A stretch of DNA of 64,000 nucleotides from Candidatus Nitrospinota bacterium M3_3B_026. GTDB lineage: Bacteria; Nitrospinota_A; UBA7883; JBPRGF01. The DNA lies in contig JBPRGF010000023.1 of NCBI GenBank assembly GCA_051418015.1, forward strand, positions 172,127 through 236,126, read 5' to 3'. Positions 32,677 to 49,592 of the stretch are shown piece after piece. The notes below the pieces were generated by a model. That model was not told the origin of the DNA, ran no database searches, and saw only the letters and a program-made list of their open reading frames with translations. The translations under genes were made by a program, and so were the position numbers. Each line of letters opens with the position of its first letter. The first letter of the stretch is position 1.

Positions 32677-32698
32677 TTTTTCAAGGGGAGACGAGGCG

Positions 32699-33166
32699 AT
32701 GAGACCAAAATCCCTTGCGCCGGTACTGGAGGGGCACCCGTTCCTTGAGGGGATGGAGAAAAAGCACATCGACCTGATCGTGGGATGCGCCAAAAACGTC
32801 CGCTTCAACGCCGGGGACTACATCTTCCGCGAAGGCGAAGCGGCGAACGATTTCTACATCATCCGCCGGGGCCTCGTCTCGGTGGAGCTTTACAGCCCCC
32901 GGAAAGGCCCCATCTCCATCCAGACCCTTCGCGACGGCGACATACTCGGCTGGTCGTGGCTCATACCGCCACACCAGTGGCGGTTCGACGCGCGGGCGGT
33001 GGAGACAACGAGGGCCATAGCGCTGGACGGCGGATGCCTGCGCGGGAAGCTGGAGGACGACCACGGCCTCGGCTACCAGCTGCTGAAAAGATTCTCCCGG
33101 GTCATGGCAAAGACGCTCGAGGGCACGAGGCTCCAGCTGCTGGACCTTTACGGCGAAGGCGCATGA
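32699..33166 (+). CDS. stand-alone cyclic nucleotide-binding domain protein (no DNA-binding domain)
   Basis: 155 aa with a cNMP-binding fold (GDYIFREGEAANDFYIIRRGLVSVEL, GDILGWSWL). GGGGAG RBS. Its stop overlaps the ATG of the next gene (ATGA). Confidence 0.65.
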   Translation: MRPKSLAPVLEGHPFLEGMEKKHIDLIVGCAKNVRFNAGDYIFREGEAANDFYIIRRGLVSVELYSPRKGPISIQTLRDGDILGWSWLIPPHQWRFDARAVETTRAIALDGGCLRGKLEDDHGLGYQLLKRFSRVMAKTLEGTRLQLLDLYGEGA

Positions 33167-34017
33167 CGACGCCCGTTTCCATCAATCCCGGAGCGGACGC
33201 GGCGATCCCCGTTCCCTGGATGGTGACGGCCAGGAGGGAGCAGACGCGCGACGTCTTCACCCTCGAGCTTGCCCCGCCCGCCGGGATGGACGGTCTCCGG
33301 TTCGCGCCGGGCCAGTTCAACATGCTGTACCAGTTCGGCGCGGGCGAGGCGCCGATCTCCATCAGCGGCGACCCAGCGAGGACCGGCGCGCTGGAGCACA
33401 CGATCCGGGCCGTCGGCGGCGTGACAAGGCTTATGGCCAGCCTTAGGGAAGGAGACGCCATCGGCGTCCGGGGCCCATACGGGCGTGGATGGCCGATGCC
33501 TGAGGCGGAGGGGAAAGACGTCGTCATCGCCGCGGGCGGGATCGGGCTGGCCCCGCTGCGCCCGGCGGTTCTTGGCATACTGGCGGAGCGGGAAAAATTT
33601 GGAAGAGTCGTCCTGTTTTACGGCGCGCGATCCGACGAGGACATAGTCTTCGAAGACGACCTGCGGGAATGGCGGTCGAGGTTCGACATGGAGATCGAGG
33701 TGACCGTCGACCGGGGGTCCGGCGGATGGCGCGGACCCGTCGGCGTCGTCACACAGCTTATTCCGCGGGCCGCCTTTGATCCCGCGAAAACGCTGGCCAT
33801 GATATGCGGGCCGGAGGTGATGGCGAAGTTCACCGTGTCGGAGTTTTTAAGGCTCGGCGTTGAGCCGGGGAGGATATACGTCTCCATGGAACGGAGCATG
33901 AAATGCGGAGTCGGCCTTTGCGGGCATTGCCAGATGGGCCCGCTTTTCGTCTGCAAGGACGGGCCGGTTTTCACCTATGACAGCATCCGCCGCCTCATGG
34001 CTCTGCGGGAGATATAG
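33163..34017 (+). CDS. NiFe hydrogenase gamma subunit, AsrB-like FAD/NAD(P)-binding 2Fe-2S oxidoreductase
   Basis: 284 aa. FAD-binding barrel (RDVFTLEL...GQFNMLY), an NAD-binding region (VVIAAGGIGLAPL), and a C-terminal 2Fe-2S Cys cluster (CGVGLCGHCQMGPLFVCKDGPVF). The ORF call at 32785 is a spurious extension. Confidence 0.75.
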   Translation: MTTPVSINPGADAAIPVPWMVTARREQTRDVFTLELAPPAGMDGLRFAPGQFNMLYQFGAGEAPISISGDPARTGALEHTIRAVGGVTRLMASLREGDAIGVRGPYGRGWPMPEAEGKDVVIAAGGIGLAPLRPAVLGILAEREKFGRVVLFYGARSDEDIVFEDDLREWRSRFDMEIEVTVDRGSGGWRGPVGVVTQLIPRAAFDPAKTLAMICGPEVMAKFTVSEFLRLGVEPGRIYVSMERSMKCGVGLCGHCQMGPLFVCKDGPVFTYDSIRRLMALREI

Positions 34018-34782
34018 ATGAAAAAGAAACTGGCCGTCTTCAAGTTCGCCTCATGCGACGGCTGCCAGCTTTCGCTTCTCAACCTGGAGGACGAGCTTCT
34101 GGCCATCGCCGGCGCCATCGACATCGCCTATTTCCCCGAGGCGTCGCGGGAGTACGTCAAGGGGCCTTACGACCTTTCCCTGGTGGAAGGCTCCATAACC
34201 ACCTCCCACGACGCGGAGCGGATCCAGAAGGTGAGGGAAAACTCGAAATTCCTCGTGACCATCGGCGCCTGCGCGACGGCGGGGGGCATCCAGGCGCTCC
34301 GGAATTTTCAGGACGTAAACGAGTTCATATCCGTGGTCTATGCCTCGCCGGAGTATATCAGCGCGCTCGGCGAGTCCACGCCCATCGCCGATCACGTCGC
34401 CGTGGACTTCGAGCTTCGCGGCTGCCCCGTGAACAAAGGGCAGCTGCTGGAGGTCGTAACGGCCTTCATCCACGGGAGAGCGCCAAAAGTCCCGGCCCAC
34501 AGCGTCTGCCTGGACTGCAAGCTGGCGGGGAACGTCTGCGTGATGGTGGCCCGGAGTGAGCCGTGTCTTGGGCCCGTGACCCACACAGGCTGCGGCGCGC
34601 TCTGCCCGGCGTATCATCGCGGCTGCTACGGCTGTTTCGGGCCGATGGAGACGCCGAACACGCGCTCCATGGGCGGGCGGCTGAAGGCGCTGGGGCTTTC
34701 GGGGGAGGACGTCGTCCGCTCTTTCCGGGGCTTCAACGCCTGGGCGGAGGATTTCAGGGAGGCCGGCGGGGAGGATGAGTGA
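34018..34782 (+). CDS. NiFe hydrogenase small (delta) subunit
   Basis: 254 aa. Proximal-cluster Cys pattern [27 protein letters not shown]. Confidence 0.8.
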
Positions 34783-36070
34783 AACCAGGAAGATAAGGGT
34801 GGACTACCTCGCCCGCGTCGAGGGAGAGGGGGCTATGACATTGAAGATAAAGGACGGCGCCGTCTCCGGCGTGGCCCTTGAGATATTCGAGCCGCCACGC
34901 TTTTTCGAGGCTTTTTTGAGGGGGCGGAGATTCCAGGAAGCGCCGGACATCACCGCCCGGATATGCGGCATATGCCCCATCGCCTACCAGATGAGCGCCG
35001 TCCACGCCATGGAGGACGCGCTGGGGGTCGCCGTCGACGGGGCCACGAGGGATCTTCGCAGGCTGATCTACTGCGGCGAGTGGATAGAAAGCCACGCCCT
35101 CCACGTCTACATGCTCCATGCCCCCGATTTCCTCGGGTACGAAAGCGCCATCCACATGGCAAAAGACCACCCGGAAATAGTAAAACGCGGTCTTTTTATA
35201 AAGAAGGCGGGCAACGCCATCGTCTCGCTTCTTGGCGGCAGGGAGGTTCACCCCATAAACGTCCGGGTGGGGGGTTTTTACAGGTTGCCGCGAGCTGGCG
35301 AGCTTTCCGGCCTGGAGGAGACTCTCAAAAGAGCCAGGGACGAGGCCGTGGAAACCGTGAAATGGGCCGCCGCCCTCCCCTTCCCCGAGTTTGAGAGGGA
35401 TTATGTCTTCGTGGCGTTGTCTCATGAAAGAGAGTATCCCTTCAACGAGGGAAGAATCACCTCCACCGGCGGGCTCGACATCCCTGTCAGCGACTACGAA
35501 AAACATTTCGAGGAGGAGCACGCCGCCCATTCCACGGCCCTGCGCTCGAAGATAAAGGGAGGCGGCGCGTACATGACCGGGCCGATGGCGCGGTATAGCA
35601 TCAACTTCGGGAAGCTGCGGCCGATAGCGGTGGAAACGGCGCGGGCGGCGGGCCTTGCGCCGTACATCACGAACCCGTACAAGAGCATAGCCGTCCGCGC
35701 CGTGGAGATTCTCCACGCCATAGACGAGGCGCTGCGGATCATCGGGGACGGAAAGCTTCCCGAAAAGCCGTTCGTGGAGGCGGAGCCCTCCGAGTCCACG
35801 GGATACGGCGCGACGGAGGCGCCGCGGGGGCTTCTCTACCACAGGTACACGCTTGACGAGAGCGGGCTGATAACGAGCGCCAGGATCGTCCCCCCCACGT
35901 CGCAGAACCAGCGGATAATCGAGGAGGACCTTTTCAAGGCCGCCTCCGAAAACCTCCGCCTGCCCGACGATGAGCTTACGTTACGGCTGGAACAGACGAT
36001 AAGGAACTATGACCCGTGCATATCCTGCTCCACGCATTTTCTGAAGCTGAAAATAGAACATGAACGGTAA
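34775..36070 (+). CDS. NiFe hydrogenase large (alpha) subunit
   Basis: N-terminal L1 motif RICGICP. C-terminal L2 motif DPCISCSTH followed by a 10-aa cleavable tail. Confidence 0.9.
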
Positions 36071-36536
36071 GGTCCTCATAGGCGTCGGGTCCGAGGATCG
36101 CGGCGACGACGCCGCAGGGCTCAGGATCGTCCGCGCCCTCAGGGACATGGTTCCCAGGAGCGTCGAGGTGGTGGAGGCGCCGGGCGAGGGAGCGCGTATA
36201 ATGGAGGCTTGGCAGGGTTTTCATTTCACGCGGGTGTTCGACGCCGTCTCCTCCGGCGCGCCGCCGGGGACGATCGTAAAGCTCGACCCGCGTAAGGACC
36301 CCTTTCCCGCGGCCTTTTTTCGCAGTTCCTCCCACACTTTCGGCCTGGCGGAGGCGGTGGAGCTTGCGCGGTCGCTCGGCGCTCTTCCGCCGTCTCTCAT
36401 GATCTACGGGGTGGAGGGGAAGGACTACGGGCTGGGGCGGGGGCTCTCGGCGGAGGTGTCCGCCGCCGTGGATGAGATCGTGGAGATGGTCAAAAAGGAG
36501 ATGCTCTCTTCGCCATCCATGGGAGATGATGGCTAG
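36060..36536 (+). CDS. hydrogenase maturation endopeptidase (HycI/HoxW family)
   Basis: 158 aa ([17 protein letters not shown]). Overlaps the large-subunit stop. Confidence 0.8.
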
Positions 36537-37054
36537 GACTTGGAGAACCGCTCCGACACGGAGTCGAAGCCTATGACCACCTTGTCGCGGCTTTCGAGGG
36601 TGACCGTCCCTTCGAAAGAGTGGCCGAACGTCTCGTCCCCGTCCCTGGTGTCCTTTATGGCCACTTTTATCGCATGCGAGCCGAGGGGCAGGATGAACTT
36701 CTCGTAGACATACGTGGCGCTGTCCTGCCTTATGCCCGATGGGACGATCTGCTTGTCCAGGGCGGTTTCGCCGTCGATCCACACCTTGAGCCGCAGGGGG
36801 ACGCGTTCCCGGCTGCCGCAAACCCTGTCCGCCCGCTGCATGTGCGGGCGTCTCAGCTTGGCCTCCTTTTTGAACTCTTCGAGCTCCTCCTCGTCGCACA
36901 GGCTCCTGCGCTCGGTCACTCTCTTGAACGATATGATGACCCCCCCCACGTCGTCGCTGTAATAGCTGTAGGACGGCGAGTCGGAAAGAAAATACACCAG
37001 CGGCGCGGGGGACAAAAGCAGGATCACGGCCCAGACCGTCAGTCTATCCTTCAT
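36533..37054 (-). CDS. hypothetical secreted protein
   Basis: 173 aa with an N-terminal signal-like helix. Last gene of the minus-strand oxidase operon. Its stop overlaps the protease stop (convergent). Confidence 0.4.
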   Translation of the reverse strand: MKDRLTVWAVILLLSPAPLVYFLSDSPSYSYYSDDVGGVIISFKRVTERRSLCDEEELEEFKKEAKLRRPHMQRADRVCGSRERVPLRLKVWIDGETALDKQIVPSGIRQDSATYVYEKFILPLGSHAIKVAIKDTRDGDETFGHSFEGTVTLESRDKVVIGFDSVSERFSKS

Positions 37055-38730
37055 TTCAGCGCGCCCTCCATGTCGTTGGCGGCGGTCTTTCCGCCGGATG
37101 GTTTTCTGACGATCTCCAGGAACTTCTTTATGTCCGCCACCACTTCCTCGTCCTCAAACCTCGACACCAGCATGACTTTTATCCGCTCCCCCGCGCTCTC
37201 GTCCACTCCGGTGATGTTCGCCGGGTCCGTCGCCTCCTCGATCCGCTCGTTGCCTTCCCTGTAATGGCAGTCCAGCGGCCTGCAGCCCACGACCACGACC
37301 CCCTTCGCGCCGTCCTTGAACGCCGCTCCCACAAGGTCCGGCTCCAGGACGCCGGCGCAGGGGATGACCATCACGGCCGCCGCGGGCTCGCCGGCAAGGC
37401 TTCTCTCGTCGTCCGACAGGACGTTCGAGAGGGTCATGCTCCGCTCGCACATGAAGCAGAGGATGACCGGCTTCTCCCCCTCCGCGGGCGCCATAAGGGA
37501 CTTTATGTCCTCCAGCATCGAATCCCGCGTCATCTCCCCCATGGATATCCCGGACGTGGGGCACGCCGTCACGCAGAACCCGCATCCCTCGCACCGCGCC
37601 GGGAATATTTCCACCTGTGTGTCGTATGGTCTTCCGTCCGTTCTGGGAGTTATGCTCACCGCCTCGAAAGGGCAGACCGGCTGGCAGAGGTTGCATCCTT
37701 TGCATTTTTCAAGGTCTACCAGCGCGAACTGTTTTCGGGCTTTTTTTTTTGCCGCCGCCTTTCGCTTCTCACGCTCCAGCGCCGGCGCGGGGATGAGCCA
37801 TGGCAGGGCCGTGAAAAGCGCGAGGGCCGCGGAGCCGGCGATCCACATCGCGCCGGGGGCGACCCTGAAGGCGTCCATGAAGGGGAACGGGATCAGGTAG
37901 AACCAGTCTATCTCCACTCTTCCTAAAAGCTTCGAAAGGTCCGCGGGTCCCATACTGACGGCCGGTTTCACGAGGGAGAGGCCCAGCAGGCCCGCCAGTA
38001 TGACCAACGCCACCGGCCGCGGCGGGGAGATCAGGGGCCTGGAAAGGCGCATGTAGTGGATCCAGGCCATTATCAACAGGAAACAGGGGATCATGAGATG
38101 CAGGTAGTTGGTCACGAAAAAGAGCACGCTCGTGACCGTCTCGTTGGTCAGGAACGTCCTGGAGACGGGCTCCACGGTGATGGGGAGGGCGTCCAGCAGG
38201 CGGGCGAACTCCACGGCCACCATCTTCCCCTTCTCGTCCCACACCAGCACGTAGCCGGATATCCCCTCGAACCAGACCCAGAACAGGATCACCGAGCCGG
38301 AGACCCACGCCACCCATCTAGCGCGCCTGAACCGGTCGGAGAAAAAGACCTGGGCCACGTGCAGAAGGATGGATATGGCCAGCCCGTCGGCGGCGTAGCG
38401 GTGCATGGAGCGCATTATGCCGCCGTAATATTTCTGCTCCTTGGTGATGTATTGTACGGACTCGTAGGCCCCTTCCACGCTCATATCGTAAAAGAGGAAC
38501 AGGTATGACCCGGTGATGATGAGGATCCAGAACAGGAACAGGGATATGGCCCCGAGGAAGTACATGGGGTTCAGCCTCGGCGGGAAGATCTTGTTCAGCT
38601 GCTCCTGGATGAAGACCAGCGTCGTGTTGCCGGGCCGCAATATCCAGGGGATAAGCTCATTCTGGTACGTCTTGGAGGCCCTTTTCAGGGACCTTTCGAG
38701 TTCTCTCTCCTTGTCCGTGTCTTGTCTCAT
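37051..38730 (-). CDS. fusion protein: di-haem cytochrome b6-like membrane domain + 2x[4Fe-4S] ferredoxin + MvhD-like (FlpD) domain
   Basis: Cytochrome b His pairs 14 residues apart (MHRYAADGLAISILLH and YLHLMIPCFLLIMAWIH) and a b6-like GYVLVWD motif. Two CxxCxxCxxxCP motifs (CKGCNLCQPVCP, CEGCGFCVTACP). MvhD signature GCRPLDCHYREGN. Confidence 0.7.
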   Translation of the reverse strand: MRQDTDKERELERSLKRASKTYQNELIPWILRPGNTTLVFIQEQLNKIFPPRLNPMYFLGAISLFLFWILIITGSYLFLFYDMSVEGAYESVQYITKEQKYYGGIMRSMHRYAADGLAISILLHVAQVFFSDRFRRARWVAWVSGSVILFWVWFEGISGYVLVWDEKGKMVAVEFARLLDALPITVEPVSRTFLTNETVTSVLFFVTNYLHLMIPCFLLIMAWIHYMRLSRPLISPPRPVALVILAGLLGLSLVKPAVSMGPADLSKLLGRVEIDWFYLIPFPFMDAFRVAPGAMWIAGSAALALFTALPWLIPAPALEREKRKAAAKKKARKQFALVDLEKCKGCNLCQPVCPFEAVSITPRTDGRPYDTQVEIFPARCEGCGFCVTACPTSGISMGEMTRDSMLEDIKSLMAPAEGEKPVILCFMCERSMTLSNVLSDDERSLAGEPAAAVMVIPCAGVLEPDLVGAAFKDGAKGVVVVGCRPLDCHYREGNERIEEATDPANITGVDESAGERIKVMLVSRFEDEEVVADIKKFLEIVRKPSGGKTAANDMEGALK

Positions 38731-38779: not shown

Positions 38780-39595
38780 TTAGGAGGCTTGCGCGCCCCT
38801 CGCGCGGCCTGAGTGGCGGGAGAAAAGATGGGCTATCCTGCCCCGCAACAGGTAAACGACAGTGGCCACTATCAGGATGTACTGCAAAATGACTGCGAAG
38901 ACAAACGTGTAATCGACCTTGTAGGTCTTGGTGACGGGATCGTAGTTCGAGCAGTAGATCAACAGCTTTGACAGGGCGCTGGTCATCCTCCCCTGCGCCG
39001 TGCGGCCGGCGAGGACATCCCGGACGGCGTTCTCCACTTCCGCGGGATCGTAGTCCACTCCGTAGAAATGCCTGGCGACGGAGCCGTCGGGCGCGACGAG
39101 GGTGAGGCGGTTCAGGTGATCGAGGCTGTCCGCCTTCTTCTCGTAGGAAAAGCCGAGGTCCGACACCATCATCCCCAGCGTCTCGTCGTCGGTGGTCGTG
39201 AATATCCATCTTTCGAAATTGTCCGCGAAAGCCGCGCCGTACTCCCTGAGCCTGGCGGGGTTGTCGTTATGGTTGTCGATGCTTATCGACAGCGTCATCA
39301 GCTTCCCGGCGACGGCCGGGTCGATGGCCGCCAACATGTTTTTAAGGCTCTCGTTTATGAGCCAGCAAGGGCCGTGGCAGTCCACGTACATGAAGCTTAC
39401 GAGGACGGGCCTGCCTTTCAGGCTGTGGAACGGGAGGTAGTCCCCGTCCTGCGTAATAAGCCTGTAGTTTCGCACCTTCCGCCCCACCGCCAGCTCCGAG
39501 CGCTCCAGGACCGAAGCCCCAGGCGCGGCCGGCGCCGTGGCGGAAAGCGGCGAAACGATCAGAACAACCGCTAATACCAGCGCACGTTTCAGCAT
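38780..39595 (-). CDS. SCO1/SenC family copper chaperone (thioredoxin-like)
   Basis: 271 aa. Signal peptide, CHGPC (CxxxC) motif, and a C-terminal TM segment. Confidence 0.7.
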   Translation of the reverse strand: MLKRALVLAVVLIVSPLSATAPAAPGASVLERSELAVGRKVRNYRLITQDGDYLPFHSLKGRPVLVSFMYVDCHGPCWLINESLKNMLAAIDPAVAGKLMTLSISIDNHNDNPARLREYGAAFADNFERWIFTTTDDETLGMMVSDLGFSYEKKADSLDHLNRLTLVAPDGSVARHFYGVDYDPAEVENAVRDVLAGRTAQGRMTSALSKLLIYCSNYDPVTKTYKVDYTFVFAVILQYILIVATVVYLLRGRIAHLFSRHSGRARGAQAS

Positions 39596-39844: not shown

Positions 39845-41365
39845 TCAAGCCTCGATCTTTTTGCCGACTAGCAGCGTCCCGACGGCCACCAACACATACA
39901 TGGCGCCGCCCAGCACCGCTATGACGCCGCCGATGCCCACGATCGCCATCGAAAGGTCCACGATGGGCCCGAAGTTGACGGCGAAGGGCGAATCCGCCCC
40001 GGTCATGTCCCAGCTTCTCCTGGGCACGCCGAACACCCCGGCGAACATCATGAAGATGCACAGCAGGTACATCCCTATGCCATAGACGTAGGGCTGGGCC
40101 TTGGCTATGCCCTTGAAGGCCACCTCGCGCCTGAATATGAGAGGCAGCACGTAGTAGGTCACGCCCATGAAGGCCATCGTCGTGCCCGCCACCACTGTGG
40201 CGTGGAAATGGCCGGGGACGCGGATGGTGTTGTGGACGACTATGTTCAGCTGCTCCGTGCCGTATATGACGCCGGAGATGCCTCCCAGGAAGCCGAAGCC
40301 CACCATCGAGAACCACAGCGAGGACCATCCCGGATCGCCCCACGGGGCCTTCTTGAGCCACTCGAAAAGACCGGCGGTGTAGCCCTTCTTCCTGAGCGCC
40401 ACCTCCGTCGCCGCCGGCACGGAGAAGGCGTGGATCATCGAGGCCAGCACAGCAAGGTGCATGAAGTACCCCGTGTTCCACGACTTGTGCGCCGCCGAGA
40501 GGCCCGGGTCGACCAGCAGGTGGTGCTCCGAGGCTATCAGGATGAACAAGATGTAAAGGCCGAAAGCGATGCGGCTGACCTTCTCGTTGATCGGCGTGGA
40601 GCCGACCGTCAATGTCCCCAGAAGGTACCAGACAGCCACCATGGCGCAGACGTTTATCTGCTGCGACGAGTGGCCGAAGCCCCAGAACAGCAGCCTGTAG
40701 ACCTCCGCGTCCATCATGGGGATGAGCCCCAGGGCCCACAGCCACGTGGGGATAAAAGTGGCCGCTCCATGCGCCAGGGTCAGTATGGCGATGATCGCCG
40801 CCGCCATGGCCCCGAAGGTCACAAGCGGGACGGAGCCTTCGTAGGTCTTGTCCCTCTTGGCCACCGCCAGCGTGGCGAAAAAGACCACGCAACCCACGAT
40901 GGCGCCCACGGCGAAGAGTATCACGCCGAGGTAGTACCAATGGTCGGCCTTCAAGGGGATGTACGAGGTGAACATCACGTCCGCCTTGCCGAGCAGTATC
41001 TCCACCGCCGCTATTGCGGCTCCGCCCAGCATCAGCAGATACGCCAGCCACCCGGCCCATGGCGCGGCCAGCCTGGTGTTCAGCAACACCGCGGACGCGA
41101 AGTAGAGCACAGCTATCTCGAAGAAGATGATCCACGCCACCAGCATGGCGATCCCGTGCAGGGTCAGCAGCCGGTAGAACCACTCGTCATTGAGTATGTG
41201 CACGGCCTGCCACCTGGTGAGGACCATGAACAGCCCGATTATCCCCCCCACGAGGAGGAACACGATCGAAGTCACCGCGTTGACCTGTATCAGGGTCTGC
41301 GCGGGAAGGTGTATCTTGAAACCGGTTGTCGGACAGGTTCTGAACCGTCCTTCTTGCTCCGCCAT
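39845..41365 (-). CDS. heme-copper oxidoreductase superfamily subunit I (12+ TM), possibly a nitric oxide reductase
   Basis: All six canonical His are present: helix II (LTLHGIAM), helix VI (GFGHSSQQ), helix VII (SEHH) and helix X (GHFHATV). There is no Tyr at H+4 in helix VI. Confidence 0.85.
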   Translation of the reverse strand: MAEQEGRFRTCPTTGFKIHLPAQTLIQVNAVTSIVFLLVGGIIGLFMVLTRWQAVHILNDEWFYRLLTLHGIAMLVAWIIFFEIAVLYFASAVLLNTRLAAPWAGWLAYLLMLGGAAIAAVEILLGKADVMFTSYIPLKADHWYYLGVILFAVGAIVGCVVFFATLAVAKRDKTYEGSVPLVTFGAMAAAIIAILTLAHGAATFIPTWLWALGLIPMMDAEVYRLLFWGFGHSSQQINVCAMVAVWYLLGTLTVGSTPINEKVSRIAFGLYILFILIASEHHLLVDPGLSAAHKSWNTGYFMHLAVLASMIHAFSVPAATEVALRKKGYTAGLFEWLKKAPWGDPGWSSLWFSMVGFGFLGGISGVIYGTEQLNIVVHNTIRVPGHFHATVVAGTTMAFMGVTYYVLPLIFRREVAFKGIAKAQPYVYGIGMYLLCIFMMFAGVFGVPRRSWDMTGADSPFAVNFGPIVDLSMAIVGIGGVIAVLGGAMYVLVAVGTLLVGKKIEA

Positions 41366-41378
41366 AAGCCCCCCCTAC

Positions 41379-41906
41379 CTATTCAACGTATATCTTGCCG
41401 AACATCAGGTGATGCCCGATGCCGCAGAACTCGTTGCAGATTATGGTGTACTCCCCGGCTTTCGTCGGCGTGATGGTCAGCACCGAGTCCCACCCGGGGA
41501 CGGCCTGGAAGTTCATGTTCAAAGGATAGATCGAAAAACCGTGGTTCACGTCCACGGAGGACAGATGCAGCCTGTAGGTCTGGCCCGCCTTGAGCTTCAG
41601 GATGGGGTCCCACGACCACTGGGCGGCTCTCATGAAGGCGTCGCTGTTGGGAGGAGGCTCCACGACCGGGATTCCTTCCTCCTCGCCCACCTTGTACTTC
41701 TCTATGAACTTATCGGTCAGGTTGTAGAAATCGTCGGTGGTGAGCTTGTAGTACTCCTGCGGCGGGTTCTGCTCCCCGATTATATGCCAGGCCGGCATAA
41801 TAAGTGTTATCAATATGCACCATATCAGCGCGATGGTGATCCATATCTTCTCCTCCGCATGGAGAGGACTGCGCCACCAGTGCCGCGCGGGCGAATGAAT
41901 GCTCAT
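41379..41906 (-). CDS. heme-copper oxidase subunit II with CuA site (cupredoxin), no cytochrome c domain
   Basis: N-terminal TM helices. CuA motif VNHGF...ICNEFCGIGHHLM (H-x35-CxExCGxxHxxM). Confidence 0.8.
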   Translation of the reverse strand: MSIHSPARHWWRSPLHAEEKIWITIALIWCILITLIMPAWHIIGEQNPPQEYYKLTTDDFYNLTDKFIEKYKVGEEEGIPVVEPPPNSDAFMRAAQWSWDPILKLKAGQTYRLHLSSVDVNHGFSIYPLNMNFQAVPGWDSVLTITPTKAGEYTIICNEFCGIGHHLMFGKIYVE

Positions 41907-41928: not shown

Positions 41929-42132
41929 TCACCCTTTGACCAAAGGAGACGTGGCGACGCTGCCCAACTCCACAAGTCCCCAGACGGTGTACAACAGCAG
42001 GAAAATCGCCGCCCCGAGGAAAAACAGCAGATACACGTCATCGAAAAACACCTGCCAGAAAGATACCGGCTCCTCTTCCCGCGCCTCTTCTTGTTCCATA
42101 TGACTTCCCCCCTTTAATCTAAGGTTCGCCAA
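41929..42132 (-). CDS. small membrane protein (first gene of oxidase operon)
   Basis: 67 aa with one TM helix. Possibly starts at the internal MEQEE. Confidence 0.35.
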   Translation of the reverse strand: MANLRLKGGSHMEQEEAREEEPVSFWQVFFDDVYLLFFLGAAIFLLLYTVWGLVELGSVATSPLVKG

Positions 42133-42263
42133 AGATGAGGATCACGCCTGTAGCGCCGGCTCCGTCGCCGGGTACCGCGCCGCGCGCCGCGATCACGCTC
42201 AAACCGGCGCTCATGCGCCACGCTCTTACCGCGTTTTTATATCGGCAACCATCGGTAAAAGCT

Positions 42264-42277
42264 ATGATAAAAGTCAT
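42264..42277. promoter_or_regulatory. FNR/Dnr(Crp-Fnr family)-type palindrome
   Basis: ATGATaaaagTCAT, versus the consensus TTGAT-N4-ATCAA. Lies in the divergent intergenic region, about 130 nt upstream of the oxidase operon. Confidence 0.35.
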
Positions 42278-42529
42278 AAACAACAGACGCATTTCATTAC
42301 CATCCGCGACGCTCTGGCTATATGCCTGCGGCGCCCCGTAAGCGCCGGGACGCTCTGGCGAACACCCTGGAAAACCGTCGGCGCCAAGGAAAGCAAAACG
42401 CTTCGCCCGAAGAAAATAATTTCGCGCGGAGGGCGCAATTTTTTTCCAGGCCACCGCGGAATCTTCAGCAACCGCCGAGAATCCAAAAAGTTACATCATG
42501 AAAAATTCCGCAAGATACTTTTCAAATGT

Positions 42530-42543
42530 ATGACTTTAATCAT
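42530..42543. promoter_or_regulatory. FNR/Dnr-type palindrome upstream of nirS
   Basis: ATGACtttaATCAT, centred 77 nt upstream of the nirS ATG. This is consistent with a -41.5 class II site. Confidence 0.45.
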
Positions 42544-42613
42544 ATCGTCCGGCCGGAGTCCCGTTTATAAACGGTATTAAGCAGCGAATAAGACTTTTTT
42601 TTGGGGGGGACAC

Positions 42614-44218
42614 ATGAAAAGATATTTCTTTCTGTTCGCGCTGAGTCTTGCGTTAATCACCACGTTTTACACGCCACAAGCCCTGGCGGAGCCCGAAGCG
42701 CCACCGTTGAACCAGGATGAATGGCACATCGCCAAGAGCATCTACTTCAACAGGTGCGCCGGCTGCCACGGCACCCTGAGGAAAGGCGCCACGGGGCCCA
42801 ACCTCCTTCCGGAGAAGACCCTCGAATTCGGCACGGAGACCATCAGGAGCTTCATTATGGAGGGGACCGAGGGGGGCATGCCGGCCTTCGGCAGGGGCGG
42901 AATCCTGACGCCGGAGGAGGTCGACATCATGGCCAGGTTCGTCCAGCATGACCCCGTGGCCCCGCCGGAGATGTCGCTGGCGGACATGATGGAAAGCTGG
43001 AACCTTGTCGTGCCGCCGAACAAGAGGCCGAAAAAGCCGGCCCACAACAGGAACTGGCAGAACTTCTTCGGCGTGGTCCTGCGCGACGCTGGCCAGGTGG
43101 CCATCATCGACGGCGACACCAAGGAGAAGGTATCCACCGTCAACACAGGCTTCGCGGTGCACATCCTGCGCGCCTCGGCGTCGGGCCGGTATATCTTCTC
43201 AATCGGCCGCGACGGCAAGGCGACCATGATCGACACCTGGATGAAAAAGCCGTCCATCGTGGCCGAGGTCAAGACCTGCTCCGAGGCCCGCTCCATCGAC
43301 ACCAGCAAATACGAAGGCTACGAGGACAAGTACGCCGTGGTGGGCTGCTACTGGCCGCCGCACTTCGTCGTCCTGAACGGCGCCACGCTGGAGCCGATGA
43401 AAATCGTCAGCACCAGAAGCTACACCTACGACTCGTATGAGTACCATCCCGAGCCCCGCGTGGCGGCGATCGTCTCCTCGCACTACAGCCCGGAGTGGGT
43501 CCTGAACGTCAAGGAGACGGGCTACGTCTGGCTGGTCGATTACTCCGATATCGAGAACATGAAGATCACCCAGATCGAGTCTGAGCGCTTCCTTCACGAC
43601 GGGGGCTGGGACGCCAAGCACCGCTACTTCATGGCGGCGGCGAACATGCGCGACACCATGGTTGTCATAGACACCAAGACCAGGAAGAAGGTGGCGCAGT
43701 TCAAGGTCGGCACCAAGCCGCACCCGGGCCGCGGCGGAAACTGGGTCGACCCGAAATACGGCCCCGTCTCGGGCACGGTGCACCTCGGCGAGGGACTGCT
43801 CTCGGTGTGGGGGTCCGACCCTGAGGGTCACCCGGAACACGCCTGGAAGGTCGTGAGAAGCATCGAGCTTCCCGGCGGCGCCGGCAGCCTGTTCATGAAG
43901 ACCCACCCCAAGAGCAAACACATGTGGATGGACTTCACCCTGAACCCGGACCCGAAGAACCATCGCAGCGTATGCGTGATGGACATCAACAAGCCTAACA
44001 CCAAGGACCTGAACTGTTTCCAGGTGACCGACCACGGACGCGTCGTGCACATGGAGTACAACAAGAAAGGGGACGAGGTGTGGCTGAGCGTCTGGGACAA
44101 GGAGGGCGAGCTGGTCATCTACGACGACAGGACCCTGAAGGTCAAGAAGAGGATCAAGGGTCTTCGCACTCCCACGGGCAAGTTCAACGTGTACAACACG
44201 CAGCACGACATCTACTGA
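42614..44218 (+). CDS. nirS: cytochrome cd1 nitrite reductase
   Basis: 534 aa. Signal peptide, haem c site IYFNRCAGCHGTLRKGATG, a d1 beta-propeller, and a C-terminus FNVYNTQHDIY near-identical to Pseudomonas NirS. Confidence 0.92.
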   Translation: MKRYFFLFALSLALITTFYTPQALAEPEAPPLNQDEWHIAKSIYFNRCAGCHGTLRKGATGPNLLPEKTLEFGTETIRSFIMEGTEGGMPAFGRGGILTPEEVDIMARFVQHDPVAPPEMSLADMMESWNLVVPPNKRPKKPAHNRNWQNFFGVVLRDAGQVAIIDGDTKEKVSTVNTGFAVHILRASASGRYIFSIGRDGKATMIDTWMKKPSIVAEVKTCSEARSIDTSKYEGYEDKYAVVGCYWPPHFVVLNGATLEPMKIVSTRSYTYDSYEYHPEPRVAAIVSSHYSPEWVLNVKETGYVWLVDYSDIENMKITQIESERFLHDGGWDAKHRYFMAAANMRDTMVVIDTKTRKKVAQFKVGTKPHPGRGGNWVDPKYGPVSGTVHLGEGLLSVWGSDPEGHPEHAWKVVRSIELPGGAGSLFMKTHPKSKHMWMDFTLNPDPKNHRSVCVMDINKPNTKDLNCFQVTDHGRVVHMEYNKKGDEVWLSVWDKEGELVIYDDRTLKVKKRIKGLRTPTGKFNVYNTQHDIY

Positions 44219-44301: not shown

Positions 44302-46017
44302 ATGACCTCGCCATCCATGACGCGGATCGCGGCTCTCATCCTTGCGCCGGTGTTTATCTCCGGCCCCGGATCGGCCTTCGCCGAAACTTCCGCGAAGAAC
44401 CTCTATGGGGAGCATTGCGCGAGCTGCCATCACCCGAAAAGGCTGGGGCTCACGGCCCCTCCCTTGATACCGGGTCTTTTTTCAAGAAGCGCCAAGGGCC
44501 GCCTGCCCCAAATAATCCGCGACGGGCTTCCGGCCACGCGGATGCCGGCTTTCGGCGGCGAGCTTTCTGATGAACAGATAAAACTTCTGGCGGAACTCAT
44601 ACAAGAACCGGCGAAGGAGTTGGACTGGACTTTTGAGGACATACGGTCTAGCAAGATTGACATTGACGAGCCTGGAAAAGTTTTAAGAGCCGACATCGAG
44701 AATATAACGCTGGTCATGGAGCGCGGGACGCAGAGCCTCGTCGTTCTGGACGGCGCGGATTTCAGCGAGCTCGGCAGGTTCCACGTGGGCGCCGTCCACG
44801 GCGGGCCGAAGTTTTCGTATTCCCTGGATCGTGTGTACGCCCTTGCCAGGGACGGGATACTGACAAGCTATAATCTGAGAGCCCTTTCCGCCGAGACCAG
44901 GCTCAAGGCGGGGATAAACTCCCGCTCCGTCGCCGTATCAAGCGGCGACAAAACGGTGGCCGTGGCCAATTACCTTCCGTCCAACGTCGTCCTTTTCGAC
45001 AAAGACCTGGAGCCCGTCGGCGAGATACCACTGCCCGGAAAGGCGGGGGGGTTCTACTCGCTGCCGTCCCTGAAAAGCTTCGCCCTGTCGTTCAGGGAGA
45101 TTCCGGAACTCTGGATAATCGGCGAGAGCCCGCCTTTCGAGATCGAAAAACGAAAGCTGCCCGAGGCTTTCCAGGATTTTTCGGTCAGTCCCGTCAAGCC
45201 TTACATAATCGGGACGAAACGGGGCGGCGATCATATGTACATCTACGACTACATGGAGGACAGGATACTCAAAAAGATCCCCACCAGCGGCCTGCCGCAC
45301 CTGGCCTCGGCCGCGTTCTACATACACAAGGGCGAGCTTTTCGCCGGGGTCAACCACATAAAAAAGCCAGCGGCCACGATCATATCCCTCGACCGGCTCG
45401 ACAAGGTGGCCGAGATACCCCTTCCCGGCGCGGGCTTTTTCGTCCGGACGCATCATGCCACGCCGTACCTGTGGATAGATACCGAGACGGAGCGGATCGC
45501 CCTCGTGAACAAGGACGACTTCTCCGATATCCGCTACCTGACGCCCCACGAGGGGCGCAAGGCGATGCACGTGGAATTCACCAAGGAGGGCGCCCGCGCC
45601 CTGGTCACCATCCCGGGCAGGGGCGGCGAGGTGGTCATATACGACGCGAAGACCCTGGAAAAGATCAACGCCATCCCCTTCGAACGGCCCGTCGGCAAGT
45701 ACAACGCCACGAACAAGACGTACCCGGGCAGATCGCTCGCGGCGCGGAAGGCGGATGGGGCCAGCGCGGGCAAACAGGTCTTCGACAAATACTGCATGGG
45801 GTGCCACCACCAGGTCTACGAGGCGTTCGGGCCATCCTTCACCCGGATAGCCAGGGAGAGGGGCGCGGCAAGGATAAAGTTTCACATCCTGTCGCCCGAG
45901 GCCAGCGCAAAGACCCTGGGGTACAAGAGAAACTCCATGCCCAGGATAAAACTTTCGCCGGAGCAGCTGGAGGCGATAGTCAGATACATAAAAAGCTTCG
46001 GCCAGACGGGGGGATAA
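44302..46017 (+). CDS. nirN: cd1-family beta-propeller protein with N- and C-terminal c-type cytochrome domains (NirN-like fused to a NirC-like cytochrome c)
   Basis: 571 aa. Signal peptide. CASCHH at the N-terminus, a d1-type propeller, and a second CMGCHH motif in a C-terminal domain of about 90 aa. Confidence 0.65.
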   Translation: MTSPSMTRIAALILAPVFISGPGSAFAETSAKNLYGEHCASCHHPKRLGLTAPPLIPGLFSRSAKGRLPQIIRDGLPATRMPAFGGELSDEQIKLLAELIQEPAKELDWTFEDIRSSKIDIDEPGKVLRADIENITLVMERGTQSLVVLDGADFSELGRFHVGAVHGGPKFSYSLDRVYALARDGILTSYNLRALSAETRLKAGINSRSVAVSSGDKTVAVANYLPSNVVLFDKDLEPVGEIPLPGKAGGFYSLPSLKSFALSFREIPELWIIGESPPFEIEKRKLPEAFQDFSVSPVKPYIIGTKRGGDHMYIYDYMEDRILKKIPTSGLPHLASAAFYIHKGELFAGVNHIKKPAATIISLDRLDKVAEIPLPGAGFFVRTHHATPYLWIDTETERIALVNKDDFSDIRYLTPHEGRKAMHVEFTKEGARALVTIPGRGGEVVIYDAKTLEKINAIPFERPVGKYNATNKTYPGRSLAARKADGASAGKQVFDKYCMGCHHQVYEAFGPSFTRIARERGAARIKFHILSPEASAKTLGYKRNSMPRIKLSPEQLEAIVRYIKSFGQTGG

Positions 46018-46018
46018 G

Positions 46019-47188
46019 ATGTTCAGACTAAGCCATTATTACAACATAGCTGAAGGGCGCGCGGGCCGCGGCGGAAAGTCCCATGGCGCCAGATGCGGCG
46101 GGAAGCCGATCGTGATATGGAACCTCACGAGGACATGCAACCTCTCGTGCGTCCATTGCTACGCCTCGTCGAAGGCGCGCGGCTACAGCAGGGAGCTTTC
46201 CACGGAGCAGGCCGTCTCGGTCATGGACGGCCTTTACGCCGCCGGGGTGAGAACGGTCATCCTCTCCGGCGGCGAGCCGATGATCCGCGGGGATATCCTT
46301 AACCTTGCCGCAAGCGCTAAAGAAAAAGGCTTCATGACCTCCATCTCCACCAACGGCACACTTATAGGAGAGAAGGAGGCGGACAGGATAGCCGCCGCGG
46401 GGCTGGACTACGTCGGCGTGAGCCTGGACGGCATCGGCGAGACCCACGACCGCGTCCGGGGCGTCGAAGGCTCTTTCGAGCAGGCCGTGGCGGGGCTTTT
46501 CAGGCTGGCGGAGCGGGGGGTAAAATGCGGCGTGCGTTTCACGCTGACGAGGATGAACATGAACGACCTGCCGGCGATCTTCGAGTTCGCCGAGAAGAAC
46601 GGGATAGGGAAAATATATTTATCACACCTCGTCTACTCCGGCAGGGGTGGCGTCAATCGGGGGGAGGACGTCACCCCGGCTGAGACGAGGGAAGCGATGG
46701 ATTACGTTTTCAGCAAGGCGCGGGAGTACACGCGGCGCGGGCGCGGGCCGCAGATCGTCACCGGGAACAACGACGCCGACGCCGCGTACCTGCTCCTGCG
46801 TCTCATGGAGGGGAGCCCGGAGGGGGCCGAGCGGCTCCTGCCGGTGATGGAGAGGTTCGGCGGGGCCAACGCCGGGGTGGGGGTCGCGAACATAGACCCC
46901 ACCGGTGAGGTCCACCCCGATCCTCTCATGTCCTCCGTGAACCTGGGGAACGTCACCGAAAAATCTTTCGGTGAGATATGGCATGACTCCGAAAACCCCG
47001 TCCTGAAAAGGCTCCGGGCGAGGCCCCGCGTCTTCAACGGCCGGTGCGGACGGTGCGCCTGGCTGAAGGTGTGCGGCGGCTCCTGCCGCGTCCGGGCTCT
47101 GCGGATGACGGGGGACATGTGGGGTCACGACCCCGCCTGCTACCTTACCGACGAGGAAACCCAGGTTGAGCTTGCGCAGGCTGTATAG
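46019..47188 (+). CDS. nirJ: haem d1 biosynthesis radical SAM protein
   Basis: 389 aa. CNLSCVHCY radical SAM cluster plus a C-terminal SPASM-like Cys cluster (CGRCAWLKVCGGSC). Lies in the nir context. Confidence 0.8.
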   Translation: MFRLSHYYNIAEGRAGRGGKSHGARCGGKPIVIWNLTRTCNLSCVHCYASSKARGYSRELSTEQAVSVMDGLYAAGVRTVILSGGEPMIRGDILNLAASAKEKGFMTSISTNGTLIGEKEADRIAAAGLDYVGVSLDGIGETHDRVRGVEGSFEQAVAGLFRLAERGVKCGVRFTLTRMNMNDLPAIFEFAEKNGIGKIYLSHLVYSGRGGVNRGEDVTPAETREAMDYVFSKAREYTRRGRGPQIVTGNNDADAAYLLLRLMEGSPEGAERLLPVMERFGGANAGVGVANIDPTGEVHPDPLMSSVNLGNVTEKSFGEIWHDSENPVLKRLRARPRVFNGRCGRCAWLKVCGGSCRVRALRMTGDMWGHDPACYLTDEETQVELAQAV

Positions 47189-48338
47189 CGCTGTTATCCC
47201 GGCCGTTCTCGCGCTCGCGGCAGCAGCGGCGACAGCGGGCGAGTGGGGCACGGGGGCGCTCATGGTGGTCATCGAGCGCGAAAGCGGCTCCGTCCTGGTC
47301 ATAGACTCCGCCCAGGACCACAAAGTCCTGGGCAGGATAGAGGGTCTCGGCGTACTGCATCACGCATCGGTCTCCTTCTCCCGCGGCGGGCGCTACGGCT
47401 ACGTCGTCAGCCGCGACGGCTTTTTGAGCAAGATCGACCTTCTGAGGCTCGAAGTCACCGCCAGGGTGAAGGTGGGAGAGAGCGCCATCGGGCTGGCTGT
47501 CACGCAGGACGGGAAACATATCGCCATCAGCAATTACAAGCCGGGGAACATCGTCATCGTCTCCGATGAGACTTTTGAGATCGTAAAGACCATAGACGCC
47601 GACGAGTCGAAGACCGTCGGCCTCGTGGACGCCCCGGAGAACAGGCTGGTGGTCTCTTTAATGGACGCGAACGAGATATGGGTAATAGACGCGAACGATC
47701 CGGATTTCCCCGTCATCAAAAAGTTCAAGGACGTCGGCGAGAAGCCATACGACGGCCTGCTGACTCCCGACGGGCGGTATTACATCGCCGGGCTTTTCCA
47801 TTCCCCGTGGGCGGCGATGGTGGACCTCTGGAGCATGGACGGGGTTGAAAAAATCCCGCTGCCCGTCCCGCCCGAAAAAAAGGACAAACCGCCGGTCCTG
47901 AAGATCCCCCACCTGGAGGGGTGGATCATGGCCGGGCAGGGCCTTTTCGCGCCGGTGATAGGCGGCTCCGGGCTGGCGCTGATCGACATGGAGACATGGA
48001 AGGTAAAGAAGGTGATAGACCTGCTGGCATACCCCGTCTTCGCCATGGCCCAGCCGGACATGAGGAGGATATGGACCAACTACGTCCTGGGCGAACACCA
48101 CGACACCGTGCAGGTCGTGGACGTGAAAACCCTCGAGGTGGTCAAAACCCTCAAACCCGGCGACAAAATTTTCCACATGCAGTTCACGCCCAAGGGCGGC
48201 GCCGTCTACCTCTCCTCCAACGGCGACGACAAGGTCCTGATCTACGACACGAAGACTTTTGGGCTTGTCAGGGAGATATCAGCCAGAAAACCATCCGGGA
48301 TATTCTCAAGCGCCCGCTCCGCCACCTTCGGGCTGTGA
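47166..48338 (+). CDS. nirF: haem d1 biosynthesis protein NirF (d1-type propeller without haem c)
   Basis: 390 aa. Signal peptide. cd1-propeller-like repeats. No CxxCH. Confidence 0.7.
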   Translation: MSLRRLYSAVIPAVLALAAAAATAGEWGTGALMVVIERESGSVLVIDSAQDHKVLGRIEGLGVLHHASVSFSRGGRYGYVVSRDGFLSKIDLLRLEVTARVKVGESAIGLAVTQDGKHIAISNYKPGNIVIVSDETFEIVKTIDADESKTVGLVDAPENRLVVSLMDANEIWVIDANDPDFPVIKKFKDVGEKPYDGLLTPDGRYYIAGLFHSPWAAMVDLWSMDGVEKIPLPVPPEKKDKPPVLKIPHLEGWIMAGQGLFAPVIGGSGLALIDMETWKVKKVIDLLAYPVFAMAQPDMRRIWTNYVLGEHHDTVQVVDVKTLEVVKTLKPGDKIFHMQFTPKGGAVYLSSNGDDKVLIYDTKTFGLVREISARKPSGIFSSARSATFGL

Positions 48339-48488: not shown

Positions 48489-49592
48489 ATGAGCACGATC
48501 CTTATCGTGGACGACAACGAGGACAGCATTGTCCTTTACGAGTCCATCATCTCGTCGCGCGGCTACAGGGTCATCACCGCCGGCGACGGCGAGGAAGCCC
48601 TGGAGAAGCTTAAAGCCGCCGAAGGGGGCGTGGACCTCGTCCTCTCCGACATCATGATGCCGAAAATAGACGGGCTGGGCCTTGCCAGGAGGATAAAGAG
48701 CGACCCCGACGCGCGCCACATCCCGGTGATCCTGCTCACCGCCGGGAAACGTGAGCGCGAGGACATGGCGGGCGGACTGGACGTCGGCGCGGACGACTAT
48801 CTCGTAAAGCCCGTGGACACCGTGGAGCTGATGGCGAGGCTGCGCTCACACCTGAGGGTGAAAAAGCTCCAGGACGAGCTGACGCTGGCGAACCGCCGCC
48901 TGGCGGAGATGAACGACAACCTGGAGCAGTTGGTCGAGGAGCGGACGGTCGAGATCATGCTGACCAGGAACGCGGCCATATTCGGCCTCGCCAAGATCGC
49001 CGAGCGCCGCGACCCGGAGACCGGCGGGCATCTTGAGAGGATACGCGAATACACCAGGGCGCTGGCCATCCAGATGCGGAAGGCGCCGCGTTTCAGGGAC
49101 GTGATCGACGACGACTTCATCGTCAATATCTACCAGTCCAGCCCCCTGCACGACGTGGGCAAGGTGGGCATCCCGGACAGCATATTGCTCAAGCCCGGCA
49201 AGCTGACGCCCGAGGAGTTCGAGATCATGAAAACCCATTCAACGATCGGCGGGGACTCCCTCGCGGCGGCGGAGCGCTCCTTCGCGGGTGACAGCTTTCT
49301 TTCCATGGGAAGAGACATCGCCTACTACCACCATGAACGGTGGAACGGGAAGGGATACCCGAAAGGTTTGGAGGGGGATGAAATCCCTCTCGCCGCCCGG
49401 ATAATGGCCCTGGCCGACGTCTACGACGCCCTGGTCAGCAAACGGGTCTACAAGGAGGCCATGTCCCACGAAGAGGCCAGGAAAATCATCCTGGGCGAAG
49501 AGGGGGAGCATTTCGACCCGGACATCGTGGCGGCTTTCCGGGAGATAGACCAGTTGTTCCTGGAGACAAGAAGAAAACACTCGGACGAGTGA
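48489..49592 (+). CDS. response regulator with HD-GYP phosphodiesterase domain (RpfG-like)
   Basis: REC domain (VDDNED...DLVLSDIMMP...DYLVKP). HD motif HDVGKVGIP. GYP motif WNGKGYPKGL. Confidence 0.85.
   Translation: MSTILIVDDNEDSIVLYESIISSRGYRVITAGDGEEALEKLKAAEGGVDLVLSDIMMPKIDGLGLARRIKSDPDARHIPVILLTAGKREREDMAGGLDVGADDYLVKPVDTVELMARLRSHLRVKKLQDELTLANRRLAEMNDNLEQLVEERTVEIMLTRNAAIFGLAKIAERRDPETGGHLERIREYTRALAIQMRKAPRFRDVIDDDFIVNIYQSSPLHDVGKVGIPDSILLKPGKLTPEEFEIMKTHSTIGGDSLAAAERSFAGDSFLSMGRDIAYYHHERWNGKGYPKGLEGDEIPLAARIMALADVYDALVSKRVYKEAMSHEEARKIILGEEGEHFDPDIVAAFREIDQLFLETRRKHSDE

Follow-up and report, generated by a model that had tools for sequence, protein, structure and literature searches.

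In haem-copper oxidoreductases, the residue at the position of the cross-linked active-site tyrosine is Tyr in the oxygen reductases and Glu in the nitric oxide (NO) reductases cNOR and qNOR; sNOR has Asn there, and eNOR has Gln (PMC8756737 Table A4, following Hemp & Gennis 2008). The eNOR family, which includes Rmar_0161 of R. marinus and the 'cytochrome a1-like' haemoprotein of M. magnetotacticum (Hemp & Gennis 2008; Murali et al. 2024), was described in 2008, and its biochemistry followed in 2024. Here we describe a further candidate, found in a 64,000-nucleotide stretch of contig JBPRGF010000023.1 from the metagenome-assembled genome (MAG) Candidatus Nitrospinota bacterium M3_3B_026; this whole stretch is referred to below as the window. 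The gene in question (window positions 39845-41365, minus strand) encodes a protein of 506 amino acids that we assign, with a probability of about 87%, as subunit I, the catalytic subunit, of an eNOR-type NO reductase derived from the B family of haem-copper oxidoreductases. The assignment is made on sequence against the published criteria of the family, with Rmar_0161 compared by its description only.

Inclusion in eNOR is decided by the Gln, and one proton channel is predicted (PMC8756737 Table A4, section 2.7.1). The family has been placed next to the B family, with homologues of a CuA-bearing subunit II and a K-like channel that includes Ser309 (PMC11214002), and helix VII contributes to the channel residues (preprint 10.1101/2021.10.15.464467, Extended Data Fig. 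5 legend). The purified R. marinus eNOR turned over NO at 0.68 per second (25 °C) but showed no reduction of O2; some members have His/Lys ligation of the low-spin haem; haem As at both haem sites, CtaA in many operons and obligately microoxic denitrification have been ascribed to the family, of which 547 members have been counted in GTDB (all PMC11214002). Models of the predicted NOR families contain no migrated tyrosine (Murali et al., PMC11214002), and whether the newly predicted families follow the FeB pattern of NO reductases has, by the same account, yet to be established (Murali et al.).

The active site of subunit I

The open reading frame (ORF) of subunit I is intact; its ATG start lies 13 bp past the stop codon of subunit II, the gene upstream of it. 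Its product matches Pfam COX1 (4.6e-63), and an HMMER search of all PDB chains places B-family oxidases at the top (7deg_A at 8e-40; Thermus thermophilus ba3 at ~1e-38, aligned with high posterior); A-type oxidases reach only ~1e-6 in the same search. An AlphaFold2 model built with 71 homologues (predicted local distance difference test score 87, predicted template modelling score 0.89) has 12 transmembrane (TM) helices, and Foldseek ranks ba3 structures first against it, with template modelling scores of 0.86-0.88 at 25-26% identity.

An initial annotation of the stretch, made by inspection of the letters, had pointed to a helix-VI CuB histidine followed by SSQQ, to a Gln in place of the cross-linking Tyr at His+4 and to an ASEHH string in helix VII, and all these observations stand. 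The string WGFGHSSQQINV occupies residues 228-239 and contains the motif G231-H232-S-S-Q235-Q236 (GHSSQQ, 40658-40675, minus strand). In the HMMER alignment His232, the predicted metal-B ligand, pairs with ba3 His233, Gln236 with the cross-linked Tyr237 and His281/His282 with His282/His283; in the model, His232 lies inside the sixth helix (220-254). On the ba3 alignment and the 12-helix model, HSSQQ belongs to helix VI, where the tyrosine is truly replaced, which disposes of the objection, foreseen in the initial annotation, that the motif might belong to another helix. ASEHH spans residues 278-282 (SEHH, S279-E280-H281-H282, at 40520-40531, minus strand), and its HH pair closes the seventh helix (261-282). 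The predicted ligand set is complete: His70 and His388 for the low-spin haem, His386 for the high-spin haem, and His232, His281 and His282 for metal B.

A tyrosine of the C-type kind was likewise said to be missing, on the grounds that none follows the HH pair. This conclusion holds, although the place to look was misjudged: in C-type oxidases the cross-link tyrosine comes six residues before the pair (Tyr251 with His257/258 in P. stutzeri cbb3). The equivalent position here, HH-6, is Ile275; the nearest preceding tyrosine is Tyr271, at HH-10, and there is none in the 17 residues past the pair.

The closest solved structure is thus that of a ba3 oxidase (PDB 1XME, 3S8F), with which the locus shares the CuA site and the arrangement of its genes, the small subunit being followed by subunit II and then subunit I. 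The two part company at the active site, where ba3, which reduces O2, has Tyr237 cross-linked to His233 within GHPIVYFW, whereas Gln236 lies within GHSSQQIN here.

Conservation of this site was followed at several depths. Among 120 homologues picked by homology alone (61-90% identity), the pattern G-H-x-x-Q-Q-[IV]-N is invariant, and H232, Q235, Q236, N238, H281 and H282 are each invariant in a set of 124 sequences that takes in these 120 and three plasmid-borne relatives at 50-55% identity. The QQ-N positions are also invariant in all 205 of a larger set of non-identical sequences, although about 80 of these were retrieved with the motif itself and so provide no independent test of it. In the same 205 sequences H70, H232, H281, H282 and H386 never vary, and position 388 is His in 202 and Lys in three. 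Glu83 (helix II, 13 residues below the haem ligand His70) and Asn297 and Tyr300 (both in the upper part of helix VIII) are invariant as well (205/205), with Ala, His and Leu as the aligned ba3 residues. A pattern-based search for orthologues, proposed in the initial annotation, was carried out on 185,579 species genomes and gave at least 591 confirmed loci with the QQ motif, a number of the same order as the 547 eNORs reported from GTDB (PMC11214002), which we count in favour of eNOR identity.

A tblastn search of 72,556 plasmids gave matches that fall into two groups. Those at 49-55% identity, from Defluviimonas, Thermomicrobium roseum and Thermus thermophilus, all have GH[SG][SA]QQ[IV]N. Nine that were read at or below 33% (Haloarcula, Halomicrobium, Natrialba, Halogeometricum, Deinococcus, Geobacillus and Methylobacterium) all have the oxidase motif GH[PA][ILV]VYFW; these matches, at 28-33% identity, were considered as eNOR or sNOR candidates and rejected, since all nine are B-type oxidases with VYFW, and they serve as negative controls. 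One of the closer homologues, on the Thermus thermophilus plasmid pTthSNM6-6b (locus L002, 7983-9668), reads HFK, with Lys replacing the second His ligand of the low-spin haem. The annotation calls it a cbb3-type or ba3-type oxidase, and its neighbours encode a multicopper oxidase, an Rrf2 regulator and a cytochrome P460. Its HFK matches the His/Lys oddity reported for some eNORs (PMC11214002) and is also counted for eNOR identity. The comparisons of gene neighbourhoods below cover 84 eNOR-type loci and five B-type oxidase controls; the best 80 of the at least 591 genome loci are all from MAGs.

CuA subunit, proton path and proposed mechanism

Subunit II (41379-41906, minus strand; 175 amino acids; Pfam COX2 5.3e-7) consists of one N-terminal TM helix and a cupredoxin domain. 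It has a full CuA site, made up of His122, Cys157, Cys161, His165 and Met168, with the motif CNEFCGIGHHLM, and these five ligands and Glu19 are conserved across the family. Glu19 corresponds to Glu15 of ba3 subunit II at the entrance of the K path. At 1.8 Å, that path runs through Glu15B, Thr315, Tyr248, Thr312, Tyr244, Ser309, the haem hydroxyl and Tyr237 (PMC3141039); its equivalents here are Glu19 of subunit II and Ser315, Tyr247, His312, Val243, Ser309 and Gln236 of subunit I. The ba3 positions Glu15B, Thr315, Tyr248, Thr312 and Ser309 all have counterparts here, with His312 in place of Thr312; ba3 Tyr244 is lost, its counterpart being Val243. An eNOR-specific invariant tyrosine, Tyr271 of helix VII, sits at approximately the depth of the lost one and fits the remark of the preprint on helix-VII channel residues in eNORs. 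Conservation along the channel is high: Ser309 is found in 202 and His312 in 204 of the 205 sequences, position 315 is Ser or Thr, and Tyr247 and Tyr271 are present in all.

A mechanism can be proposed on this basis. NO would be produced in the periplasm by NirS, the nitrite reductase encoded next to the operon, and would be reduced by the eNOR. Electrons would pass from CuA of subunit II via the low-spin haem (His70/His388) to the binuclear site, where the high-spin haem (His386) faces metal B (His232/His281/His282) and two NO would be converted to N2O and H2O. Gln236 would fill the position of the His-Tyr partner, with Gln235 and Asn238 as its invariant neighbours; the coupling of NO, a two-electron reaction, would not require the His-Tyr cofactor. 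Cytoplasmic protons would probably travel from Glu19 of subunit II via Ser315, Tyr247, His312 and Tyr271 to Ser309, and Tyr271 may replace ba3 Tyr244 in this path. With protons drawn from the cytoplasm along a K path, turnover would be electrogenic and therefore energy-conserving, unlike that of cNOR. The NO reductase activity, the lack of O2 reduction and the proton uptake are predicted by analogy with R. marinus eNOR and ba3.

Weighing the assignment

Set beside the described eNORs, the locus shows every feature of the family that can be tested on a sequence: Gln236 at the Tyr position, the six canonical histidines, the B family as nearest relative, a CuA subunit II and a K-type channel with Ser309 and a helix-VII residue. 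A tyrosine in the loop that joins helix III to helix IV, which the FIND preprint (10.1101/592808) lists as an eNOR criterion, is present as Tyr135 (loop 125-141) and invariant in all 205 sequences; ba3 also has a Tyr at the equivalent position, which makes it a weak discriminator. The linkage to nir genes, frequent among eNORs, is seen here as well, and the nearness of nirS in 10 related loci is also counted for the assignment. What sets the locus apart from other eNORs is the short form of subunit I, the Glu instead of Ala before the HH pair, the lack of ctaA/ctaB nearby and the host, a Nitrospinota MAG. The initial annotation had reasoned that loss of the tyrosine points to NO reduction, and rightly so.

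Some points weigh against the assignment. No ctaA or ctaB homologue was found by tblastn in the 64-kb window, while such homologues are present in 22-30 of the 84 related loci; the operon association with haem As synthesis that is given for eNORs is thus lacking at this locus, and the paper concerned ascribes it to 'many', not all, operons. The invariant Tyr271 and Tyr300 appear too far from His232 to form a cross-link, a placement read from helical register and not from distances. Finally, by analogy with the slow turnover of the R. marinus enzyme, a detoxifying rather than a respiratory role is possible.

This last point leads to the alternative that survives best, which we nevertheless consider very unlikely: that the enzyme detoxifies NO or acts on another small substrate, in which case a cytochrome b/iron-sulphur (Fe-S) fusion protein encoded in the same operon might feed it cytoplasmic or quinol electrons. 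The slow R. marinus eNOR (PMC11214002) would suit such a role, generalized roles have been raised for these enzymes (PMC8756737), the operon of the Nitrospinae MAG GCA_016208975.1 has no nir genes nearby, and of about 80 related loci only 10 have nirS at a distance of 10 kb or less. At the locus studied here, however, nirS and its maturation genes are directly adjacent. The gene for this cytochrome cd1 nitrite reductase (42614-44218, plus strand; 534 amino acids; Pfam Cytochrom_D1 6.6e-131, with an additional cytochrome c domain) is divergent, head-to-head, to the eNOR operon, and is followed by a haem d1 maturation set at 44302-48338 (plus strand): a NirN-like protein with a cytochrome c domain, a d1 propeller and a second cytochrome c domain (44302-46017; Pfam), a NirJ radical SAM protein (46019-47188; NCBIfam TIGR04051, 4e-137, below the cut-off of that model) and a NirF-like d1 propeller (47166-48338; Pfam). 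The conserved K-type channel and the CuA site, moreover, suit an energy-conserving respiratory enzyme.

That the protein founds a new haem-copper family, separate from all described ones, was the view of the initial annotation. The active site is indeed unlike those of A-, B- and C-type oxidases and unlike that of cNOR and qNOR, with their Glu at H+4, and the separation from these groups stands; novelty does not, for the family to which the protein belongs is the eNOR family described by Hemp & Gennis (2008) and Murali et al. (2024). Two observations might still be taken for novelty: no specific Pfam or NCBIfam model exists, with all NCBIfam oxidase models far below cut-off, and the Glu before the HH pair, Glu280 (codon at 40526-40528, minus strand), marks a coherent subclade. 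Of the 205 sequences, 65 have Glu at position 280, 138 have Ala and two have something else, and Glu280 covaries with positions 227 (F/W), 230 (F/L), 240 (C/A) and 276. The Glu280 sequences are all of a short form, without the C-terminal extra helix of ~70 amino acids found in many Ala280 sequences (for example the T. roseum, Thermus and Defluviimonas homologues); their hosts among named genome loci are Nitrospinota, Thermodesulfobacteriota, Thermodesulfovibrionia and 'Deltaproteobacteria' MAGs. Yet they are all 61-100% identical to the query and agree with the Ala280 majority in the QQ-N motif, in their channel residues and in the genes that accompany them in the operon, so that they form a subclade and not a family. 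Glu280 was accordingly rejected as a family-defining residue, and its proposed status as a signature of the active site has to be given up for all but this one subclade. As all testable eNOR features are present, a new family is highly improbable.

We give equally little credence to a divergent B-family oxygen reductase that has lost the helix-VI tyrosine and perhaps uses Tyr271 or Tyr300 instead. The fold and the nearest solved relatives are those of ba3 oxidases, and these two eNOR-specific tyrosines are invariant. The motif GHP[IV]VYFW of the B-family O2 reductases, however, is replaced by GHSSQQIN, with a bulky Gln invariant at the Tyr site. Compared with the ba3 K path (PMC3141039), the register puts both tyrosines at the wrong depth, Tyr271 ~15 Å below the HH pair and Tyr300 about nine residues (~13 Å) above Ser309. 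Taken together with the statement of Murali et al. that no tyrosine has migrated, the register and the bulky Gln argue against a relocated cross-link, and R. marinus eNOR does not reduce O2 (PMC11214002).

Other NO reductases can be dismissed more briefly. The cNOR and qNOR enzymes (P. aeruginosa NorBC, G. stearothermophilus qNOR) share with this protein the lack of a cross-link tyrosine, a haem/non-haem metal site with three His ligands and presumed NO to N2O chemistry; they differ in the Glu at H+4, which is the fourth FeB ligand, in the place of CuA, which is taken by a cytochrome c subunit or a fused domain, and in having no conserved cytoplasmic proton channel (PMC11214002). An identity as cNOR, qNOR or nNOR thus fails on the Gln at His+4, the CuA partner and the low-spin haem ligands His70/His388, which are not the His/Met of nNOR. 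The sNOR and bNOR groups (qCuANOR of Bacillus azotoformans) are closer, being B-family-derived with cupredoxin subunits and a putative proton channel, but sNOR has Asn at the active site (PMC8756737 Table A4) and no Ser309 (PMC11214002), and bNOR, said to have the sNOR active site, is confined to Bacillales; Gln236 rules against both, and the presence of Ser309 against sNOR. The gNOR identity fails because all three metal-B histidines are kept, one of which is Asp in gNOR, and because the CuA site, lacking in gNOR, is complete.

Operon partners and the nir neighbourhood

The operon of the putative eNOR has six genes, all on the minus strand, in the order 67-amino-acid TM protein, subunit II, subunit I, SCO1, cytochrome b/Fe-S fusion and 173-amino-acid protein. 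The same order is found in the Nitrospinae MAG GCA_016208975.1, the closest named relative among the matches listed, and on the Defluviimonas plasmid, where a haem o synthase gene is inserted in addition. The first product (41929-42132, minus strand) has a single TM segment and occupies the position of ba3 subunit IIa, upstream of subunit II. It has no Pfam or NCBIfam match; tblastn homologues stand at the same position in 32 related loci, and the loci of T. roseum, Thermus, Defluviimonas and Nitrospinae have small ORFs at this place, either annotated or called. The SCO1/SenC-family protein (38780-39595, minus strand; 271 amino acids; Pfam SCO1-SenC 7e-13) contains a CHGPC motif and is probably a copper chaperone for CuA assembly; in 31 related loci its gene likewise lies downstream of that for subunit I.

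The fifth gene (37051-38730, minus strand) encodes a fusion of 559 amino acids (Pfam Cytochrome_B 2.8e-24, FlpD 2.4e-16 and Fer4). Its N-terminal part is a dihaem cytochrome b with about six TM segments and the histidine pairs His110/124 and His211/225, each spaced by 13; the middle is a 2x[4Fe-4S] ferredoxin with two CxxCxxCxxxCP motifs (C343..CP354, C380..CP391), and the C-terminal part is an FlpD/MvhD-like domain. Because there are six TM segments, the Fe-S part would be on the same side as the N-terminus of the cytochrome b, presumably the cytoplasm. The fusion is 100% identical to a protein of Candidatus Nitrospinota bacterium M3_3B_026, whereas a look-up of the exact subunit I sequence gave no record. 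Of the 84 eNOR-type loci, 67 have a homologue of the fusion no more than 10 kb from the eNOR genes, and it is present in all 38 genome loci with at least 4.5 kb upstream and at least 5.5 kb downstream. Such fusions also stand at L003 11423-13003, L090 12555-14180, L097 7001-8695 and L098 7001-8620. None was found in the five B-type oxidase control loci or in the T. roseum and Thermus eNOR loci; since the latter do without it, the association, though very close for much of the family, is not universal. Relatives of the fusion at 32-34% identity again adjoin QQ-type COX1 genes, and two other distant relatives do not. A cytochrome b fusion-type protein has been named, without comment, among genes flanking eNOR (PMC8756737), and the main texts of the two Murali papers on eNOR do not mention it. 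We conjecture that the fusion may be a dedicated electron-input module. It is followed by the gene for a hypothetical protein (36533-37054, minus strand; 173 amino acids) that is membrane-anchored by an N-terminal hydrophobic segment and has no Pfam or NCBIfam match. In 29 loci a tblastn homologue comes directly after the fusion; loci L090, L097 and L098 have unannotated ORFs of 174-184 amino acids in the same place.

The region between nirS and the eNOR operon is 480 bp long (42133-42613) and contains no FNR/DNR box (TTGAT-N4-ATCAA with at most two mismatches). A palindrome with three mismatches, ATGACTTTAATCAT, lies ~70 bp upstream of nirS, and no regulatory claim is attached to it. Regulators of the Rrf2 family (NsrR-like) adjoin eNOR in Thermus plasmids and in locus L097; none was seen beside the operon described here. 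Directly downstream of the nir genes lies a response regulator with an HD domain of the HD-GYP type (48489-49592, plus strand), and a CHASE2-adenylate/guanylate cyclase is encoded further on (51356-53596, minus strand); the two are a hint that nucleotide second messengers may exert control close to the denitrification genes. On the other side, a [NiFe]-hydrogenase cluster (31531-36536, plus strand) converges on the end of the eNOR operon and comprises genes for a 4Fe-4S dicluster protein, a protein binding cyclic nucleoside monophosphates, an FAD/NAD-type oxidoreductase, small and large subunits and a maturation protease-like product. These genes were considered as part of the eNOR system and rejected: a large-subunit homologue occurs in one of 89 loci, and the link is probably incidental. 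The remainder of the window is housekeeping in nature (PutA, AroA, FtsH, XseA, RadA).

The enzyme is a new example of the eNOR family, and only the Glu280 subclade and the conserved cytochrome b fusion partner may go beyond the literature. Glu280 adjoins metal-B histidines and, judged from its position in the sequence, could tune or ligate the non-haem metal. It is conceivable, if rather doubtful, that the short-form Glu280 eNORs and their relatives are the terminal module of an undescribed NO-reducing complex, with the fusion and the protein of about 175 amino acids as obligate partners. If so, the fusion could connect CuA, across the membrane, with a low-potential donor in the cytoplasm or with the quinol pool, and the complex would stand for a strictly anaerobic, possibly haem-A-independent NO respiration, in contrast with the picture of eNOR organisms as 'obligate aerobic denitrifiers'. 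Glu280 and the fusion could thus bear on the B-site metal of eNORs and on their electron source in vivo. Each correctly recognized eNOR changes the predicted nitrogen metabolism of its host: this genome of the Nitrospinota lineage has nirS and, within the window, no canonical nor gene, yet it would possess an N2O-producing step by way of the predicted eNOR.

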